From UHGV virus genome UHGV-0185671: DNA of 22,350 bases; one strand, written 5' to 3'. A program made the translations under genes and the position numbers. Shown piece after piece: positions 9,523 through 21,188 of the stretch (positions within the stretch are counted from its first letter, which is position 1; each line of letters begins with the position of its first letter). Below the pieces are notes generated by a model. It saw only the letters and a program-made list of their open reading frames with translations. It did no database searches and was not told the DNA's origin. Origin of the DNA: a virus.

Positions 9523-10902
9523 ATGGCTACGTGGCAACAGGGTATTAATTCTGGTGGTTTTCTGGCTGGCATCGGTACGCAAAACGAGAATGCACCAAAG
9601 GCAAGCGACATTAACGCAACGCTTGGTCTGATCCGCGAAAACAATGAGTTGGCTCGCTCAGGTGCAAATAACGTTGGTCTGACCGCGTTACGTGGTCTGG
9701 CTGGAGTTGCTGATATTTACAATCAGGAACAGCAACAGAAAGCGATTAGTGCATTCAATAAGGTTCACGCTGATGCATGGGCTTCTGGTGATCCATCGGG
9801 ACTATTTAAGTTTGCCCAGGAAAATCCAGCGTTTGTTGCACAGGCACAACAGGCATTTTCCGGTCTTAATGAGCAGCAACGCAACGATATGGGCGATTTA
9901 GCCATGAGAGCTAACGTCGCTCTTTCTCAGGGACCGGAAGCCTACAGTAAATTCATTACTGACAACAAGGACAGGTTAAATCACGTGGGTGCGAATGCTG
10001 ACTGGATGATTCAGGCTGGTATCCAGAATCCAGAGCAGCTATCACACATGCTGACTACTATGACGCTAGGGGCGCTTGGACCAGAAAAGGCGTTTGCTGT
10101 TCAGGACAAGATGGCTGGTCGTGAAATTGACCGAGGCAGGCTGGCAGAGACAATCCGCAGCAATCAGGCTGGTGAAGCACTAACAGCGCGTGGTCAGAAC
10201 ATCACGATGCGCGGTCAGGATTTAGCGATGCAGAGAGCATCAATGAAAGGGGCTGTTGGGAATAATGAGCGCACAGTTCAACTAGCAGACGGAAGAACTG
10301 TAACCGTAGGCGGGAAGCTTCATGGTGCTGGTGCTAACGCGTTCTACGAAGGTATAGACAATGAGGGGAACATGGTTCGCGTTCCTGCTGGCTCTATTGC
10401 CGCTCCGGCCACGTCGGCAGCAAGCGCGCAGAATTACGCAATGAAGAAAGATCTTGATGCAATTTCTGGTGCATCAATTGACGATCTTGGCTTCATGACT
10501 GGCATTACAGGCTCTTCAGGTTCTCCTGCTCTTGGTGCAGATATTCGTAGCCGTGCATCTGGTGGTTATCAGAGGAAACTATACAACGCTGCACAGCGAA
10601 TCCAAGGAAAGATGCAGAATCAGGGCATTGCAGCAGCCAGAGACATGGGGGCATCTGGTATCAACACCGTTGCAGAAGCAAAGATGTATTTTCAAGGTAT
10701 GCCACAGGTTGATTTCTCAAGCCCTGAAGCACTACAACAATCAATGCGCGACATTCAGCAATATACCGACAATTACAACCAGCAATATAACGTTAATGTC
10801 GGTAATGGCGGGGAAAAATCATCAAGGCAACAGCCAGCTACTCAGCAATCAGCAGGAGGTAGCTACACGTCAAAATCAGGCATTCAATTTACGGTGGAAT
10901 GA
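9523..10902 (+). CDS. Ejection protein gp20-like, 459 aa
   Basis: Position and size (P22 gp20 about 471 aa); synteny. Confidence 0.8.
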
Positions 10903-12731
10903 TGAAAGTAACTGCAAACGGTAAGACATTTACCTTCCCTGATGGTACGAGCACGGAAGATATTGGCACCGCCATTGATGAGTATTTTGCTGGTCAGGCT
11001 GTTCAGCAACAAACAGTTAATCAGGCCAATAATGAACCAGCACGTGAAGAACCATCATTGATGCAACAAGCTGGCGATTTGCTCACTGGTGGTCAAAGTG
11101 CAGGGCAAATTGCTGAACAGGCTGGTCGCGGTCTGGTAAACATACCATTTGACGTATTGCAGGGTGGCGCAAGTCTGATTAATGCAATCAGCCAGGGGCT
11201 TGGTGGCCCCAAGGTTTTGGATGATGTTTATCGTCCAGTAGACAGACCGACAGACCCCTACGCTCAAGCTGGAGAAACAATTGGCGGGTATTTAGTTCCA
11301 GGAGTTGGAACGGCAGGAAGCATGGCTATTGGATCACTGGCAGAGGCCGCAAATCAGAAAGGCGATTTCGCACAAAATGCAGCTAAAAATGCCGGAGTTA
11401 ACCTTGCCGCTCAGGGTGTTCTTTCCGCAGCAGCAAAGGGAATAGGGCGTGGAATTACTGCTGTTCGTGGCGAAATATCACCCGCAGATCAGCAATTGCT
11501 CAAGCGTGCCGCTGCGGCAGATGTACCAGTTATGACATCGGATGTAGTTCCGCCAAAAACAAAACTTGGCAATCAACTGCAGGGTTACTCAGAAGGAGTC
11601 ATCGCTGGGACTGGACCAATGAGAGCCGCACAGCAGGATGCTAGAACCAAGCTTGTTAATCGCTTCACCGAAAAATACGGCGACTACGATCCATCTGTAG
11701 TAGTTGATAGTCTAAAGTCAGGCGTTGCAAGGGAAAAATCGTTAGCCAAGTCAAAACTAAACAACCTGTCAGGAAGAATGGTTGGAAAGCCAGTTGATAC
11801 AAGTGGCGCCATAAGAGCTATAGACGGAGCAGTAAACGAACTTGGGAAACTTAAAGGTGTTTCTGACACCCAGACCATTTCTGCGCTTAATGATTATAAG
11901 AATGCCATTCAGGAGATAACAAATGGAGATGATGCCTTTGAGTTACTTGATAAGCTGAGAACTCAGTTCCGCATTGACGTAAAAGGCGATCGTACAGTTC
12001 TGCCATCAATGTCGCAAACAATGGTCGACAGGGTCTACAACTCGCTAACCAATAGCCTTAGTAAATCTATAGCGAAAGGACTTAGCCCAAAAGATGCTTC
12101 AGCATGGAGAGCAGGAAAAGCTGATTATGCAAAAATGGCAACACATGCAACTCAGACGCGCCTTAAAAACGTTCTAAACAAAGGAGATTTAACTCCCGAG
12201 GCTGTAAATACCATTGTTTATGGACAATATGGGTCAGATATAGCTCGATTGTACGGGAAACTCGATCAAAAAGGTAAAGACATGCTAAGGGCTGCATATA
12301 TCAGCAAAATAGCTGACAAGGTAGGTGACAGCACTCAGAAAATGATGATCGAGCTTGGCAAGCTGCAAAAACAAGCAAATGGTCAGGTGTTTAAAACTGT
12401 ATTTGGCGGGAAGAACGGAAAAGAGATAGAGGGAATGTTATCTATTCTCGATGCTACCAAAAGAGCATCTGAGGCTAATGTTGTGACGAAGACTGGCATG
12501 ACACTCGCGCCTTTGGTAAGGGTTATTGGTAACCTAAAAACCGGAGGCGCGCTATTGGCTGGGGAAACAGGGATTGGCCTTATGTCTAGGGTTTATGAAA
12601 GCACTATGGCTAGGAATGCGCTCTTACGTCTGGCAAACACTAAAGCTGGAACGCCAGCTTATGAAAGAGCGTTAAGCAAAGCTGCAAATGTCATCAGACC
12701 GCTGCTTGCCACTGAGGTAACACAGCAGTGA
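10899..12731 (+). CDS. Ejection protein gp16-like, 610 aa
   Basis: Position and size (P22 gp16 about 609 aa); start overlaps gp20 stop (ATGA); last gene of the rightward virion block. Confidence 0.82.
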
Positions 12732-12748
12732 CTAAATGCCATGGATGG

Positions 12749-13000
12749 CTATTTCCCTAGCACATGAAACAATGTTTGCTTTAATTCCACCCATACAATT
12801 ATGACCACTATAGACAGACAAAAGAAACTGAATGCATTGGCATCACGATCGAAACCTTCTCCGGCACTAAATCCGTAAAAGGTCATAAAAAATATAAAAA
12901 TTGCGCACTTTGCAACGTTTATAAATTTTTTCTTCACGCCAACCTCCTTAGTTTTGTGCAGGATACCAGATGATTTGGAGTGAGATAAAGGTTTGTCCAC
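12749..13000 (-). CDS. Hypothetical small membrane protein, 83 aa
   Basis: Minus-strand ORF with two hydrophobic stretches (AIFIFFMTFYGF; FFCLSIVVIIVWV); AT-rich; convergent with gene 16 and downstream of the PIN gene. Could be a third member of the leftward accessory operon or a sieA-like remnant; weakly supported. Confidence 0.35.
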   Translation of the reverse strand: MDKPLSHSKSSGILHKTKEVGVKKKFINVAKCAIFIFFMTFYGFSAGEGFDRDANAFSFFCLSIVVIIVWVELKQTLFHVLGK

Positions 13001-13064: not shown

Positions 13065-13613
13065 TTAGTGTAATCTCTGATCGTCTGAATCTTGTAAGAA
13101 CTCCATGAGACTTTGAACCGGAATTGGTTCTATTGATGATAATGTGAACACAGGAATATTGAGACTTTTGCAACGCTCAAACACTCCCTTATCATGAGTC
13201 CATACCTCGTCAGCATTAATTGCTCTTGCAATTGCTATTATTTGTCTGTCAAACTTAATTTTGTTTGCTGTACCTTCTGTGCTAATTTTCCTTAATTCTT
13301 TTAATGTTGGTATCGATGCGCATTCAATAGCAGCCAACTCATCAAATGATACAGTCTCGAAGCATGATAACGATTTGATAACATTCAGTTTTTCTTGTTG
13401 GTAATCTTTATGGATTCCAACTAAAAACTCCGCCAATACAGGAGTTGGAACGATGATTGTCCCGTTCTTGTTATCTATCCGATCAACAAGAGCTTCTGCT
13501 CTTCTTTTGGCATCTGGAATCTCAGAACCAAGTATAGGGTCAGATAATCTATAATCGTGTTCTATATCTGATAGTAGGTATACCAGAATATTGGTATCTA
13601 AAATTACTCGCAA
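13065..13613 (-). CDS. PIN-domain nuclease (VapC-like toxin/effector), 182 aa
   Basis: N-terminal MRVILDTNILVYLL beta-strand with Asp6, then Glu62 (VLAEF), Asp122 (FDRQIIAIARA) and Asp141 (WTHDKG), the canonical four-acidic PIN arrangement. TTG start at 13611-13613 with a GAGGA RBS 7 nt upstream; start overlaps the stop of the upstream gene by 10 nt. Confidence 0.75.
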   Translation of the reverse strand: MRVILDTNILVYLLSDIEHDYRLSDPILGSEIPDAKRRAEALVDRIDNKNGTIIVPTPVLAEFLVGIHKDYQQEKLNVIKSLSCFETVSFDELAAIECASIPTLKELRKISTEGTANKIKFDRQIIAIARAINADEVWTHDKGVFERCKSLNIPVFTLSSIEPIPVQSLMEFLQDSDDQRLH

Positions 13614-14323
13614 TTTATCTTCCTCAGAGTCCTAAGGATTGAATCAACATCGCGTTCCTCGGACCACTGATCTCCAGGAACTTGCTTGATAGCATTAATA
13701 GCATCCTTGAGTGATGATTTTTTGAGCAATGCAAATGAAGTTATTTTTAGTTTCTTTAGCTCCCATTTGTTGTTCTTTTTTTCCCAGCACCCATCTCCTT
13801 TAACCCTAATATATTTGAATAGATGGGACCCAAGAGCTGCTGCCAAATCAGGGGTTGCCTCGCACTTGAATGTTTCACCGTTGACTCCCTCAATACGCAC
13901 AGGTATTGAGTTGTCTTTTCCGCCAACACTGTATAGCCTTCCTTGAACTTCTGACGTTTTTGTTATGAGTAAAGGGATTGGCTCCTTTTTTACTCGCGGG
14001 AATGCGATAATGGTTGAGTGGTTTCGTCCGAGTAGTTTCGCTGAAAAACCATCATGTTCCAGTAAATTAACAATTTTTTGATACGCAGGTGATTTCTCTT
14101 TGGCTGAGAGAGAGGCCCTTGCTATGACAGCGTTATAACAAATATCATTATCGACCCATGCATTTAAGTCAGCCGATCCTTCACTTACACAGTCGAAGTG
14201 AACAGAATCTGCAGAACCGTATAGATCTACGAGAGCAGACATATACTTGACCAACTTAGCCATTGACAGCTGGCTAGGGGTGGTTCCGTCAAGTTTTAAT
14301 GTGAGTCCATTGCTTTTTTTCAT
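13604..14323 (-). CDS. Uncharacterised protein partnered with PIN nuclease (candidate sensor/antitoxin), 239 aa
   Basis: ATG at 14321-14323 (minus); long uninterrupted ORF; stop overlaps the PIN start, suggesting translational coupling; no recognisable DNA-binding or catalytic motif by eye; AT-rich relative to flanking virion genes. Confidence 0.65.
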   Translation of the reverse strand: MKKSNGLTLKLDGTTPSQLSMAKLVKYMSALVDLYGSADSVHFDCVSEGSADLNAWVDNDICYNAVIARASLSAKEKSPAYQKIVNLLEHDGFSAKLLGRNHSTIIAFPRVKKEPIPLLITKTSEVQGRLYSVGGKDNSIPVRIEGVNGETFKCEATPDLAAALGSHLFKYIRVKGDGCWEKKNNKWELKKLKITSFALLKKSSLKDAINAIKQVPGDQWSEERDVDSILRTLRKINCE

Positions 14324-14372: not shown

Positions 14373-14627
14373 CTATAACTTACTTTTGCTATAAATATTT
14401 TTCAGCGTTTCAAAGACCATCTTCTTAACAACGTCAGATTGCTCATCCGCGACTCGCTCAGCTTCGTCTCGATAGCCTACAATTGATGATGGCTTTGAGA
14501 GAGCATCCTGAACGATTTGTAATAACTCAGAGTTCATTGACCTTCCGTTAGCCTCTGCTCTTAATTTCAATTTTTCTCTTACTTCCAAAGGCATACGGAA
14601 GTTAAAGTGCGGATCGTCTCTAGCCAT
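14373..14627 (-). CDS. mnt: Mnt repressor (ribbon-helix-helix), 84 aa
   Basis: Translation MARDDPHFNFRMPLEVREKLKLRAEANGRSMNSELLQIVQDALSKPS... closely matches P22 Mnt as recalled; ATG at 14625-14627 (minus). The longer ORF-track call (to 14918) is an upstream extension across the promoter region. Confidence 0.9.
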   Translation of the reverse strand: MARDDPHFNFRMPLEVREKLKLRAEANGRSMNSELLQIVQDALSKPSSIVGYRDEAERVADEQSDVVKKMVFETLKNIYSKSKL

Positions 14628-14649
14628 GCCATCACCCCAAGTTAGTGTA

Positions 14650-14701
14650 TTGACATGATAGAAGCACTCTACTATATTCTCAATAGGTCCACGGTGGACC
14701 C
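14650..14701 (+). promoter_or_regulatory. immI control region: Pant promoter (-35 TTGACA 14650-14655), Arc operator (ATGATAGAAGCACTCTACTAT, 14655-14675), Mnt operator palindrome (GGTCCACGGTGGACC, 14686-14700); divergent Pmnt overlaps
   Basis: Sequences seen directly; they match the P22 Arc operator and the symmetric Mnt operator described in the literature on P22 immI. Confidence 0.85.
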
Positions 14702-14876: not shown

Positions 14877-15097
14877 AGGTATCTTATATAGATTGCGACT
14901 TCTGTCATGCATCCACATTGACAGATAAAGAAGCTGTTATGTTCACTAATATTGACAGGAAAGCTATTGGTTATCGAGAAGTCCACATCTGTAATAAGTG
15001 CATTGTTGATGCTTGGGAAGCACTAAACGGTAAAGATAAGAATTTTTATCTCAGAGCAACTGTAGAAGGTAGGCACTTTAAAGAAGTGAAAAGTTGA
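14873..15097 (+). CDS. Hypothetical Cys4 zinc-ribbon protein, 74 aa (insertion between arc and ant)
   Basis: ATG overlaps arc stop (ATGA at 14873-14876); two CxxC pairs (CDFC and CNKC) about 29 residues apart; markedly AT-rich compared with arc and ant. Confidence 0.55.
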   Translation: MKVSYIDCDFCHASTLTDKEAVMFTNIDRKAIGYREVHICNKCIVDAWEALNGKDKNFYLRATVEGRHFKEVKS

Positions 15098-15159
15098 AGC
15101 CCCAACTGCGGTAACAGTCAGGGCTTCGGTTGTCAGTAAATCTTTGGAGAAAAACCAAC

Positions 15160-19082: not shown

Positions 19083-19859
19083 ATGGTTATGAAATTGTAT
19101 TCTGAAAGCTCAGATGAAAAAGATGCATTATATCTGCTTTCTTATATCAATGATGTTATTTTGCCTGCTTCAGTCGATTTTTTTGAAAAACTAGAAGATA
19201 ATTCCTTGAGATTGCATCACGTTTTTTCATTTAATGCAATTCTTGCTCATGCGACAGATTATATAGTTTATATCGTTAACAAAAAAAACAGCATAAAAAG
19301 GATTGATTTCCTGAAAGGTTTTGATGAAAGATACTCTGTAGATGGTTGTTGTTTTATTAATAATAAATTTGAACTTTTAGATGCTGTGAATAATTCCTTT
19401 AAGCATGTTGAGTTAAAAAAGGAACGATATCCTGAACTGATAAAAAGATATGGCGATCTATCATTCCATTGCTTGAAAGAAGATTCTGGAAAAGTTTTTT
19501 TTAGAACGTCTGGATATCAATTTGATTATTCTAGAGTGGTTCTAAGACCAATTGCTAAAATATTCGATTGTGGACTCAAAGATAATAATGATGTTGATGA
19601 TTTTATAAACGGAAGAATATTTGGGAGTTGTGGTTATGGACATTTTCTATATGACTATGAACCATATGATTCAATTGATAGAATGATAGACTACTGTAAC
19701 GCACAATGTATGGATTGTGGTGAGTATGCGGATGACTGCGATTGTCATAATTATGAATACAATAAAGAAAAAGGCAAATATAATCCTGACTTAGATCCTA
19801 ACTTCGATTTTGATGATGTTATGTCAAATATTAGTGGCACAAGGGAATGGAGTAAGTAA
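19083..19859 (+). CDS. Hypothetical Asp/Cys-rich protein, 258 aa (AT-rich cargo)
   Basis: Long ORF in a very AT-rich block with an AT-rich upstream region; C-terminus has clustered Cys/His/Asp (CGYGHF...CNAQCMDCGEYADDCDCH), suggesting metal binding; no family recognised. Confidence 0.55.
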   Translation: MVMKLYSESSDEKDALYLLSYINDVILPASVDFFEKLEDNSLRLHHVFSFNAILAHATDYIVYIVNKKNSIKRIDFLKGFDERYSVDGCCFINNKFELLDAVNNSFKHVELKKERYPELIKRYGDLSFHCLKEDSGKVFFRTSGYQFDYSRVVLRPIAKIFDCGLKDNNDVDDFINGRIFGSCGYGHFLYDYEPYDSIDRMIDYCNAQCMDCGEYADDCDCHNYEYNKEKGKYNPDLDPNFDFDDVMSNISGTREWSK

Positions 19860-20369: not shown

Positions 20370-21188
20370 ATGACTAAACATATTATGCACCCCGACCATG
20401 TCGCTGAGATTTGCAGCCAAATCAAAAAATCAAACAACAGAGATTTTATCTATGATAGCTTTCGCCAATTGCTAAGCCAGTTGCCGATGGGATTTCATGA
20501 TGTAACCGCCACGACTGTATGGCGATCGAGGAAAACTGATGTGGCCCACCAGGAAGGGTTCGATCATGTTACCGATATTATTTATCCACCTGCGCAGTAT
20601 GCCAAAACCGGAAGGCTAAATACGGATGGGGTGTCTATTTTATACGCATCTATCAGCAATCATGGATGCCTGGCAGAAATAGGAGCCCAGCCGGGGGATA
20701 AAGTGCATGTGTCCGCATTCACCCTGAAACCAGAGCAGAGACTGCATTGCGGCTTTTTTGGCGATATTGTTAGGGCACATAAATGGAGTAGCGAAGATTT
20801 TACACAGGTACAAAAAATCCTTGAGCCGTATACGGAAGCGCAAAAAACCAGTATTTTCATGATAGACAGTTTCCTTGCTGAAACACTTGCTGATAGCCGA
20901 GCGAAGGAAAACCATTACCTGCATACCACAACACTTGCTGATGTCATCCGCAATGGGAAAAATGCGTTGGATGCTATCGTTTATCCTGGAGTGGAGTCCT
21001 CCGGCGCCAAGAACTATGCAATCCACTGCGACGCAATGATTAAATTCAATATTGCAGATATGTACCTGCTAGAGATAACCAAAAAGCATCCCTACGGGCT
21101 GTATGAATGGCGGATACTTAAGCAATTAGAAAGCTATGATGATGGCCGAATTATCTGGAAAGAGCCATGCTGTGCGAATGTTGCATGA
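20370..21188 (+). CDS. Probable RES-domain protein (toxin-like NAD-targeting family), 272 aa
   Basis: Motif GRLNTDGVSILYASISNHGCLAEI (Arg82 ... Glu103) resembles the conserved Arg/Glu core of RES domains, with a later Ser-containing segment (YPGVESSG); recognised by eye only. Confidence 0.5.
   Translation: MTKHIMHPDHVAEICSQIKKSNNRDFIYDSFRQLLSQLPMGFHDVTATTVWRSRKTDVAHQEGFDHVTDIIYPPAQYAKTGRLNTDGVSILYASISNHGCLAEIGAQPGDKVHVSAFTLKPEQRLHCGFFGDIVRAHKWSSEDFTQVQKILEPYTEAQKTSIFMIDSFLAETLADSRAKENHYLHTTTLADVIRNGKNALDAIVYPGVESSGAKNYAIHCDAMIKFNIADMYLLEITKKHPYGLYEWRILKQLESYDDGRIIWKEPCCANVA

Follow-up and report, generated by a model that had tools for sequence, protein, structure and literature searches.

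The window analysed here is a stretch of 22,350 nt from the virus genome UHGV-0185671 and represents the late region of a P22-like prophage of Escherichia coli. At positions 13065-14323 it carries, on the minus strand, two overlapping genes that together span 1.26 kb. The upstream gene encodes a 239-aa protein, here named A, and the downstream gene a 182-aa PIN-domain nuclease, here named B; the pair is referred to as A-PIN. With moderate confidence we read A-PIN as an accessory cassette expressed in the lysogen (a 'moron') that acts as a toxin-antitoxin-like abortive-infection module against phages. An earlier note, made from the DNA letters of the window, had suggested a toxin-antitoxin-like or abortive-infection system at this position. 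This suggestion is supported by, and appears consistent with, all of the computational evidence presented below.

The PIN-domain protein B

Gene B (13065-13613, minus strand, TTG start) is an open reading frame whose product matches the Pfam family PIN (PF01850) with an E-value of 4.1e-10 and 40.7 bits, against a cut-off of 23.6. An alignment of 23 homologues, with sequence identities ranging between 31 and 74%, shows no variation at the acidic residues D6, E62, D122 and D141. Residues E97, R123 and Q124 are likewise invariant in these homologues, R123 and Q124 being part of an FDRQ motif. The complete PIN tetrad described in the earlier note is thereby confirmed, and the 23-homologue alignment excludes that its acidic residues are non-conserved. 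Judged from this alignment, the active site of the PIN nuclease B is intact and conserved.

Protein B is identical to the RefSeq protein WP_001263856.1 at 181 of 182 residues and falls into a PHROG family of unknown function. Sequence and profile searches of the PDB with the PIN protein gave no match. Within its 182 residues, N-terminal and C-terminal extras accompany a small, VapC-sized domain, and additional targeting domains are absent. A profile comparison of this PIN subfamily with a classical VapC yielded an alignment limited to the first strand and is of little weight.

The partner protein A

Gene A (13604-14323, minus strand, ATG start) is an open reading frame whose product has no match in Pfam, NCBIfam or PADLOC. 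It affiliates over its full length with the PHROG family phrog_19868 (function unknown; E = 4.5e-122). Searches of the PDB by sequence and by profile returned spurious repeat-protein matches only and no relative. The earlier note had described a partner without recognisable domain and unlike VapB. This description holds at the level of sequence, but not at that of predicted structure, in which a ferredoxin/RRM-like domain and an OB-fold of the single-stranded DNA-binding protein (SSB) type were recognised.

The structure was modelled with AlphaFold2 using 25 homologues (predicted local distance difference test score, pLDDT, of 82); the models are of A alone, as the full-length protein and as its N-terminal domain. 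As modelled, A is composed of three parts. The N-terminal domain (about residues 1-112; 13988-14323, minus strand) is predicted to be ferredoxin/RRM-like with the topology strand-helix-strand-strand-helix-helix-strand-strand, and it contains an invariant VHF..V..GSA motif. It is followed by the predicted SSB-type OB-fold (about residues 118-200; 13724-13972, minus strand) with an invariant QGRLYSVGGKD loop and the conserved tryptophans W180 and W187. The third part is a C-terminal helical tail (about residues 203-239; 13607-13717, minus strand), predicted with lower confidence, in which the last 35 or so residues form two helices with a pLDDT of 61-70. In a structure search of the BFVD, the OB domain was the only part of A that found matches, all to phage SSBs, and no entry combined the full architecture. 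Both fold types of A are those of binders of single-stranded nucleic acids and would suit a sensor role.

The tail is a candidate for a segment that binds or neutralises the PIN protein. Its residue W220 is invariant in the 25-sequence alignment, not in a wider alignment of 17 sequences. Arg234 is kept in both alignments and in all 38 distinct pairs. The codon for this arginine (13621-13623, minus strand) is AGG in 57 of 60 loci, where it is at the same time the central part of the PIN gene's Shine-Dalgarno sequence; AGG is a rare codon, and its use here reads as a dual constraint of coding and ribosome binding. Because the three most distant pairs keep the arginine with a CGT or CGA codon, the residue itself appears to be conserved. 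For the same reason, the explanation that Arg234 is kept solely as a ribosome-binding site was partly rejected.

Gene junction, linkage and co-divergence

The two open reading frames lie at exactly the coordinates given in the earlier note, A at 14323-13604 and B at 13613-13065 of the minus strand. The junction between them (13604-13625, minus strand) was read directly from the sequence. It consists of a GAGGA at 13625-13621, a 7-nt spacer, the TTG start codon of B at 13613-13611 and the TAA stop codon of A at 13606-13604. The genes overlap by 10 nt, and the Shine-Dalgarno sequence of B is located within the last codons of A. The TTG start, the GAGGA site and the 10-nt overlap had all been predicted correctly, and the proposed translational coupling is borne out by the junction sequence and by a layout that is identical in all enterobacterial loci. 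Gene A starts with ATG and gene B at nearly every locus with TTG or GTG. Together with the embedded Shine-Dalgarno sequence, this difference in start codons points to a stoichiometric control typical of toxin-antitoxin pairs, and the translational design, as read from the junctions, favours A in excess over the PIN protein. The cassette had also been called AT-rich. This is real, the pair having a GC content of 39.6% and the window one of 45.9%, yet the degree is modest at 6 percentage points.

The linkage of the genes was examined in a census of 57 loci, composed of the window, 14 loci found via individual homologues and 42 loci from IMG/VR. In all 57, the A gene is directly followed by a co-oriented PIN gene, the two either overlapping or lying a few bases apart. 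The genes are likewise adjacent in about 20 more distant loci outside the census, and for PIN homologues down to 33-37% identity an A-like gene was present upstream every time. The pairwise identities of A and PIN are closely correlated (Mantel r = 0.97 for the 38 distinct pairs), a value that none of 2000 permutations reached. Both genes are under purifying selection, with ratios of nonsynonymous to synonymous substitution rates (dN/dS) of 0.03-0.09 overall, namely 0.03-0.09 for A and 0.03-0.07 for B. Since the pair is kept in every related locus and the dN/dS values are this low, chance open reading frames are excluded, and A and B are by these measures real genes. On the same comparative evidence they are strictly linked, translationally coupled and co-diverging.

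The family is large. A profile of A matched at least 426 clusters at 90% identity and at least 1,553 clusters at 50% identity (E <= 1e-3), 319 of the latter with E <= 1e-30. Among the matches listed, nearly all were full-length proteins of about 230-260 aa, none had a Pfam domain and all source names were 'hypothetical protein'.

Position in the prophage and expected transcription

The gene order in the window is portal, scaffold, coat, gp4, gp10, gp26, gp14, gp7, gp20 and a gene-16-like gene (10899-12731). These are followed by A-PIN, mnt, the divergent promoters Pmnt and Pant (14650-14683), arc, sar, ant and the gene of a tailspike with a P22 head-binding domain; the subsequent ybhB is a host gene. 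The mnt gene (14373-14627, minus strand) was identified by matches of its product to the Pfam families Arc and Repressor_Mnt. Its promoter Pmnt (14683-14655) scored 10/12 and Pant 11/12, the feature of mnt plus promoter thus covering 14373-14683 of the minus strand. Of the P22 immI region, the sar antisense RNA is likewise present, in complete form (15092-15159, minus strand; Rfam RF00262, 94.5 bits).

In the annotated record of P22 the order at the same place is 16, sieA with its own promoter, t_mnt, orf59a and mnt. The earlier statement that A-PIN occupies the sieA slot, between gene 16 and mnt, is therefore correct. Salmonella phage UPF_BP1 holds yet other genes between 16 and mnt, and because P22, UPF_BP1 and the window each hold different genes there, the slot can be considered variable. 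The start of A follows the stop codon of mnt after 49 nt, and within this gap we found no promoter-like site, no terminator-like site and no inverted repeats. For this reason A-PIN is probably transcribed together with mnt from Pmnt in lysogens. As far as sequence can tell, the cassette shows the marks of a moron, i.e. a variable presence, a differing GC content, a co-oriented position directly 3' of mnt or cI and a terminator after it.

The Mnt protein also matches a FitA-like ribbon-helix-helix antitoxin model (PF22513, E = 5e-8). The cognate toxin of FitA is a PIN protein. The match probably reflects only common ancestry of ribbon-helix-helix proteins. We nonetheless note the arrangement itself, in which the gene of a ribbon-helix-helix repressor stands directly upstream of a PIN cassette that has no DNA-binding component of its own.

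Genomic contexts and distribution

Placement behind a repressor gene recurs in other prophages. In gammaproteobacterial prophages the cassette lies directly 3' of, and co-oriented with, the gene of an S24 cI/LexA-like repressor in 20 loci and directly 3' of the gene of a small helix-turn-helix cI-like repressor in 8 loci. It follows mnt in about 11 loci, which are the P22-like ones of E. coli. Further prophage sites are positions near integrases and the interval that separates tail genes I and J of lambda. Two isolated temperate phages of Pseudomonas, Ostro and Pacha_bin_1, show the order cI, A, nuclease. A strong terminator was found immediately after the PIN gene in the two loci examined for it, one of which had no promoter between cI and A. 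The position after cI or mnt implies, from gene order, expression in the lysogen. Taken together, the compared loci show a cassette that appears to move as a unit between genomic sites, most of its prophage sites being directly after a lysogeny repressor gene. The lower GC content and the varied sites suggest a mobility like that of a moron or a toxin-antitoxin cassette.

Outside phages, the cassette was found in an island with a Mrr-type endonuclease and an integrase, and adjoining the insertion sequence IS1595. On Acidobacteriota-type contigs it resides within the dcw cluster or at its margin, and mazEF and vapBC cassettes have also been inserted there. The movement between lysogen-expressed prophage slots and the occurrence beside toxin-antitoxin cassettes and insertion sequences strengthen the toxin-antitoxin-like or abortive-infection reading. 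Genes of the replication modules of phages were not the neighbours of A-PIN, which occupies lysogeny-expressed or moron slots and sites outside phages; on this ground a role in replication or recombination, as an SSB-like protein with a FEN-like nuclease, was rejected.

One case of decay was encountered. In two independent assemblies that represent a single case (L073, 4754-5400, and L074), a frameshift directly ahead of the FDRQ motif has deprived the PIN gene of the last two catalytic aspartates, with A intact. Loss of the toxin before the antitoxin is the decay order expected for a toxin-antitoxin pair, and this toxin-first case hence speaks for the reading that we favour.

In E. coli the cassette is present in 33 of 5,426 complete genomes. 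All copies are chromosomal, have at least 99% identity and are intact. A search of plasmids for DNA matches to the pair was negative. None of the sequenced phage isolates carries the E. coli version, the two Pseudomonas phages being the only isolates with the cassette, in a distant version. The genome of E. coli 19AR1724 (NZ_CP195804.1; L001, 500-18600) has a prophage remnant at the ybhC-ybhB site, in which a truncated coat gene abuts early-region genes next to int/xis and in which immI and A-PIN are intact. That the cassette is intact both in this degraded remnant and in all 33 E. coli genomes again favours the lysogen-expressed, toxin-antitoxin-like module.

Several of these observations would equally be expected of a plain addiction system of the type II toxin-antitoxin class. 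In such a system A would be a large atypical antitoxin, and loss of the cassette would kill or arrest the cell and thereby stabilise the prophage or island, with no phage defence involved. The gene order, the overlap and the weak start of the nuclease gene fit a toxin-antitoxin pair; the cassette is scattered over unrelated sites, including hot spots for mazEF and vapBC and positions beside insertion sequences; one decay product lost the toxin first; and the remnant retained the cassette. What addiction leaves unexplained is the bias to the site after the lysogeny repressor (28 loci of the cI type and about 11 with mnt), which is typical of exclusion and defence morons. It also gives no account of why an antitoxin should have two conserved domains of a nucleic-acid-binding type under strong purifying selection. 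We regard addiction on its own as unlikely, although addiction and defence are not mutually exclusive.

A distant branch of the family (L063-L071 and L073-L076, Acidobacteriota-type metagenome contigs) stands beside penicillin-binding-protein (PBP) genes in four arrangements. A-PIN lies between ftsL and ftsI, between ftsI and murE, between ftsI and gcvT (with the decayed PIN gene), or after IS1595 with the gene of a class A PBP two genes later. The proximity to PBP genes may mark a hot spot for insertion, or else the cassette may be functionally tied to the cell wall or cell division. If it were functional, the pair could be a housekeeping or regulatory RNA-processing system that cleaves transcripts of lysogeny control in prophages, where it lies inside the regulatory regions immI and immC, or of division and cell-wall genes in Acidobacteriota. 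This explanation appears very improbable to us. The cassette is patchy and rare in E. coli and is found at unrelated sites, including the tail-gene gap and positions flanked by insertion sequences. P22 and most P22-like phages, moreover, run immI without A-PIN, and classical toxin-antitoxin cassettes at the same dcw sites suggest that these are an insertion hot spot.

Comparison with known systems

Among described systems, the pair is most like VapBC. VapBC and FitAB share with it a PIN nuclease with four conserved acidic residues, a partner gene located upstream and overlapping or translationally coupled (in our case by 10 nt, with the Shine-Dalgarno sequence inside A), and the nature of a mobile two-gene cassette beside other toxin-antitoxin cassettes. 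Yet the pair departs from VapBC in two defining respects, the small DNA-binding antitoxin and the score thresholds of VapC. VapBC antitoxins have 70-100 aa and a ribbon-helix-helix, AbrB, helix-turn-helix or Phd/YefM domain, whereas A has 239 aa and, as predicted, an RRM-like domain and an OB-fold. The PIN protein scores far below the curated thresholds of three VapC models, NF047863 (27.1 bits vs 140), TIGR00028 (19.9 vs 73.6) and NF047959 (14.9 vs 80), and a classical VapC encoded on a contig that also carries the cassette did not match the profile of the PIN subfamily. In addition, VapBC is an autoregulated operon, whereas the cassette in the window has no evident operator, inverted repeat or promoter of its own.

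Systems known from the same genomic positions are likewise different. SieA of P22, encoded in the same slot, is an inner-membrane protein of about 164 aa and has no sequence similarity to the pair (BLASTP E = 6.8 and E = 47). RexAB of lambda is encoded at the position that A-PIN takes elsewhere, directly after cI, co-oriented and with a terminator next; the lambda layout cI-rexA-rexB is the same arrangement as that of cI, A-PIN and terminator. SieA and RexB are both membrane proteins, whereas the pair would be a soluble nuclease with a partner whose predicted folds are of a nucleic-acid-binding type. No rex-like or sie-like model of PADLOC or PHROGs was matched.

PIN proteins have also been found with other partners in defence systems. 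DS-5 is an experimentally validated two-gene system from E. coli, composed of a PIN protein and a DUF5830/AcrIF4-like partner; its activity depends both on the catalytic residues of the PIN protein and on the partner (DefensePredictor; Science 2026, PMC13092281). The likeness to A-PIN consists in a two-gene E. coli PIN effector with a non-VapB partner. The PIN protein of DS-5, however, has 376 aa and was matched to PF16289 (PIN_12), and its partner has 166 aa (PMC13092281), whereas the PIN protein of the window reaches 15.4 bits against the PIN_12 cut-off of 32, A has no match to DUF5830, and sizes and accessions differ. DS-3 consists of one protein only, in which the PIN domain is split (PMC13092281). 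HEC-03 combines an ABC ATPase with a VapC-like PIN protein (Payne et al. 2024) and resembles the pair in having such an effector together with a large non-antitoxin partner thought to sense infection. It differs in the nature of that partner, A having neither an NTPase motif nor an NTPase fold, and PADLOC, which holds HEC models, gave no match. An identity of the pair with DS-5, DS-3 or HEC-03 was rejected because sizes, domains and accessions differ.

The DS-5 precedent bears on a further explanation, a two-component sensor-effector system, in which A would recruit or activate the PIN protein on a specific nucleic acid such as phage single-stranded DNA or RNA. Both proteins would then be needed, and the invader would be degraded without killing of the host. 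DS-5 is a case in which a PIN protein and a non-antitoxin partner are both required and in which deletion of the partner abolishes defence without being toxic (PMC13092281), so that a PIN protein and its partner need not form a toxin-antitoxin pair. The OB-fold and RRM-like fold predicted for A would suit the binding or guiding of single-stranded nucleic acid, and the strict co-evolution of both genes agrees with such a system as well. A weak start and a coupling that keeps PIN below A, and also the toxin-first decay, nevertheless fit inhibition by A better than activation, and the PIN protein is a small VapC-sized domain without additional targeting domains. We therefore consider activation by A quite unlikely.

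The PIN gene has a computational record. In Table S10 of DefensePredictor, WP_001263856.1 carries the label 'Predicted novel defense gene' and a mean log-odds of 6.81. It is placed among the 'uncharacterized clusters', neither HHblits nor Foldseek links it to a known defence protein, and it is not among the systems cloned by the authors (PMC13092281). This independent flagging of the PIN protein strengthens the defence reading. As far as we checked, the gene has been flagged computationally as defence and has not been studied. The earlier note had been unable to match the pair to a named system. This agrees with the absence of a PADLOC match for the locus and with our literature searches (PIN exclusion, OB-fold PIN defence, P22 immI/sieA morons, OB-fold antitoxins and the RefSeq accessions of the pair, WP_000749484.1 and WP_001263856.1), which returned no description of it. 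The main uncertainty about novelty comes from a study by Brenes and Laub in Cell Host Microbe of 2025, in which, according to its citation elsewhere, a PIN-domain system from E. coli prophages was reportedly validated; that system is possibly identical with the pair. To our knowledge, the known partners of PIN toxins include small DNA-binding antitoxins, ABC ATPases and a DUF5830 protein, and no SSB-type OB-fold protein is among them. As far as checked, a PIN partner with a predicted RRM-like domain and OB-fold is thus previously undescribed.

Neighbouring genes in the window

Directly downstream of the PIN gene, a small gene (12749-12937, minus strand) starts with GTG at 12937, preceded by a strong AAGGAGG site at 12950-12943. 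Its 62-aa product contains two hydrophobic helices and belongs to PHROG phrog_21338 (function unknown). The gene is present in every pair-bearing E. coli locus and in Salmonella phage UPF_BP1. As it does not accompany the cassette elsewhere, it is part of the local slot and not of the cassette. It may be a separate exclusion gene acting at the membrane.

Two genes are located between the tailspike gene and ybhB, at 19083-19859 and 20370-21188 on the plus strand. The product of the first has 258 aa and no Pfam match; that of the second has 272 aa and a RES domain (PF08808, E = 1.2e-8). RES is the toxin domain of Xre-RES toxin-antitoxin systems. Neither protein had a PADLOC match, and the two genes are candidates for a second toxin or defence moron at the prophage end.

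Proposed function and implications

As an abortive-infection module, A-PIN could act as follows. In the uninfected lysogen A would bind B and keep it inactive, possibly via its C-terminal tail with the conserved arginine. On superinfection, the domains of A that are of a nucleic-acid-binding type would engage a phage-derived ligand. This ligand might be single-stranded DNA or RNA that arises in replication or recombination, or else a phage protein able to mimic or bind such a ligand. Simple depletion of A would be an alternative. VapC-type PIN toxins cut RNA (tRNA, rRNA or mRNA). The freed B would do the same, translation would stop and the infection would abort.

A more far-reaching version takes A as an SSB-like decoy or sensor, whose tail would hold the PIN RNase inactive and release it once phage single-stranded DNA or RNA, or an SSB-interacting protein of the phage, occupies the OB-fold and RRM-like domains. 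The pair would then stand for a new class of nucleic-acid-sensing toxin-antitoxin immunity, with a switch that was recruited repeatedly behind lysogeny repressors of gammaproteobacterial prophages and, in Acidobacteriota, beside cell-division and PBP genes. We consider this version speculative and, as a whole, doubtful.

A number of points weigh against an anti-phage module of the toxin-antitoxin type. We infer its toxicity, the neutralisation, the phage protection, the nuclease substrate and the interaction of A with B. Much of the listed distant family is chromosomal, for instance in the dcw cluster of the Acidobacteriota type, where a defence role is not obvious. No family of PADLOC-DB v2.0.0 matches A, the PIN protein or the small downstream open reading frame at E <= 1. 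The likeness of A to OB and RRM folds does not prove binding of nucleic acids; across the family its isoelectric point varies from 5.4 to 9.2 and is not consistently basic, and charge was consequently dropped as support for such binding. The function of the AGG codon in ribosome binding partly explains the conservation of Arg234. Classical autoregulation is unlikely, because protein A lacks the DNA-binding domains found in classical antitoxins and the upstream sequence has no inverted repeat resembling an operator. The absence of toxicity after deletion of the DS-5 partner belongs to these points as well.

Should the proposed function hold true, A-PIN would be a compact and widespread immune or addiction module with a sensor built unlike any described PIN partner, and one of the thousands of DefensePredictor candidates would obtain a function. 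Among the many PIN candidates for defence, the pair is distinctive in being small and widely distributed, in having an unusual partner, in being wired to lysogeny repressors and, in another phylum, in its link to ftsI/PBP genes. This link, seen in Acidobacteriota, might indicate a second biological role. For temperate phages, the placement behind cI or mnt would be a simple example of how a defence cassette is wired to the lysogeny promoter.

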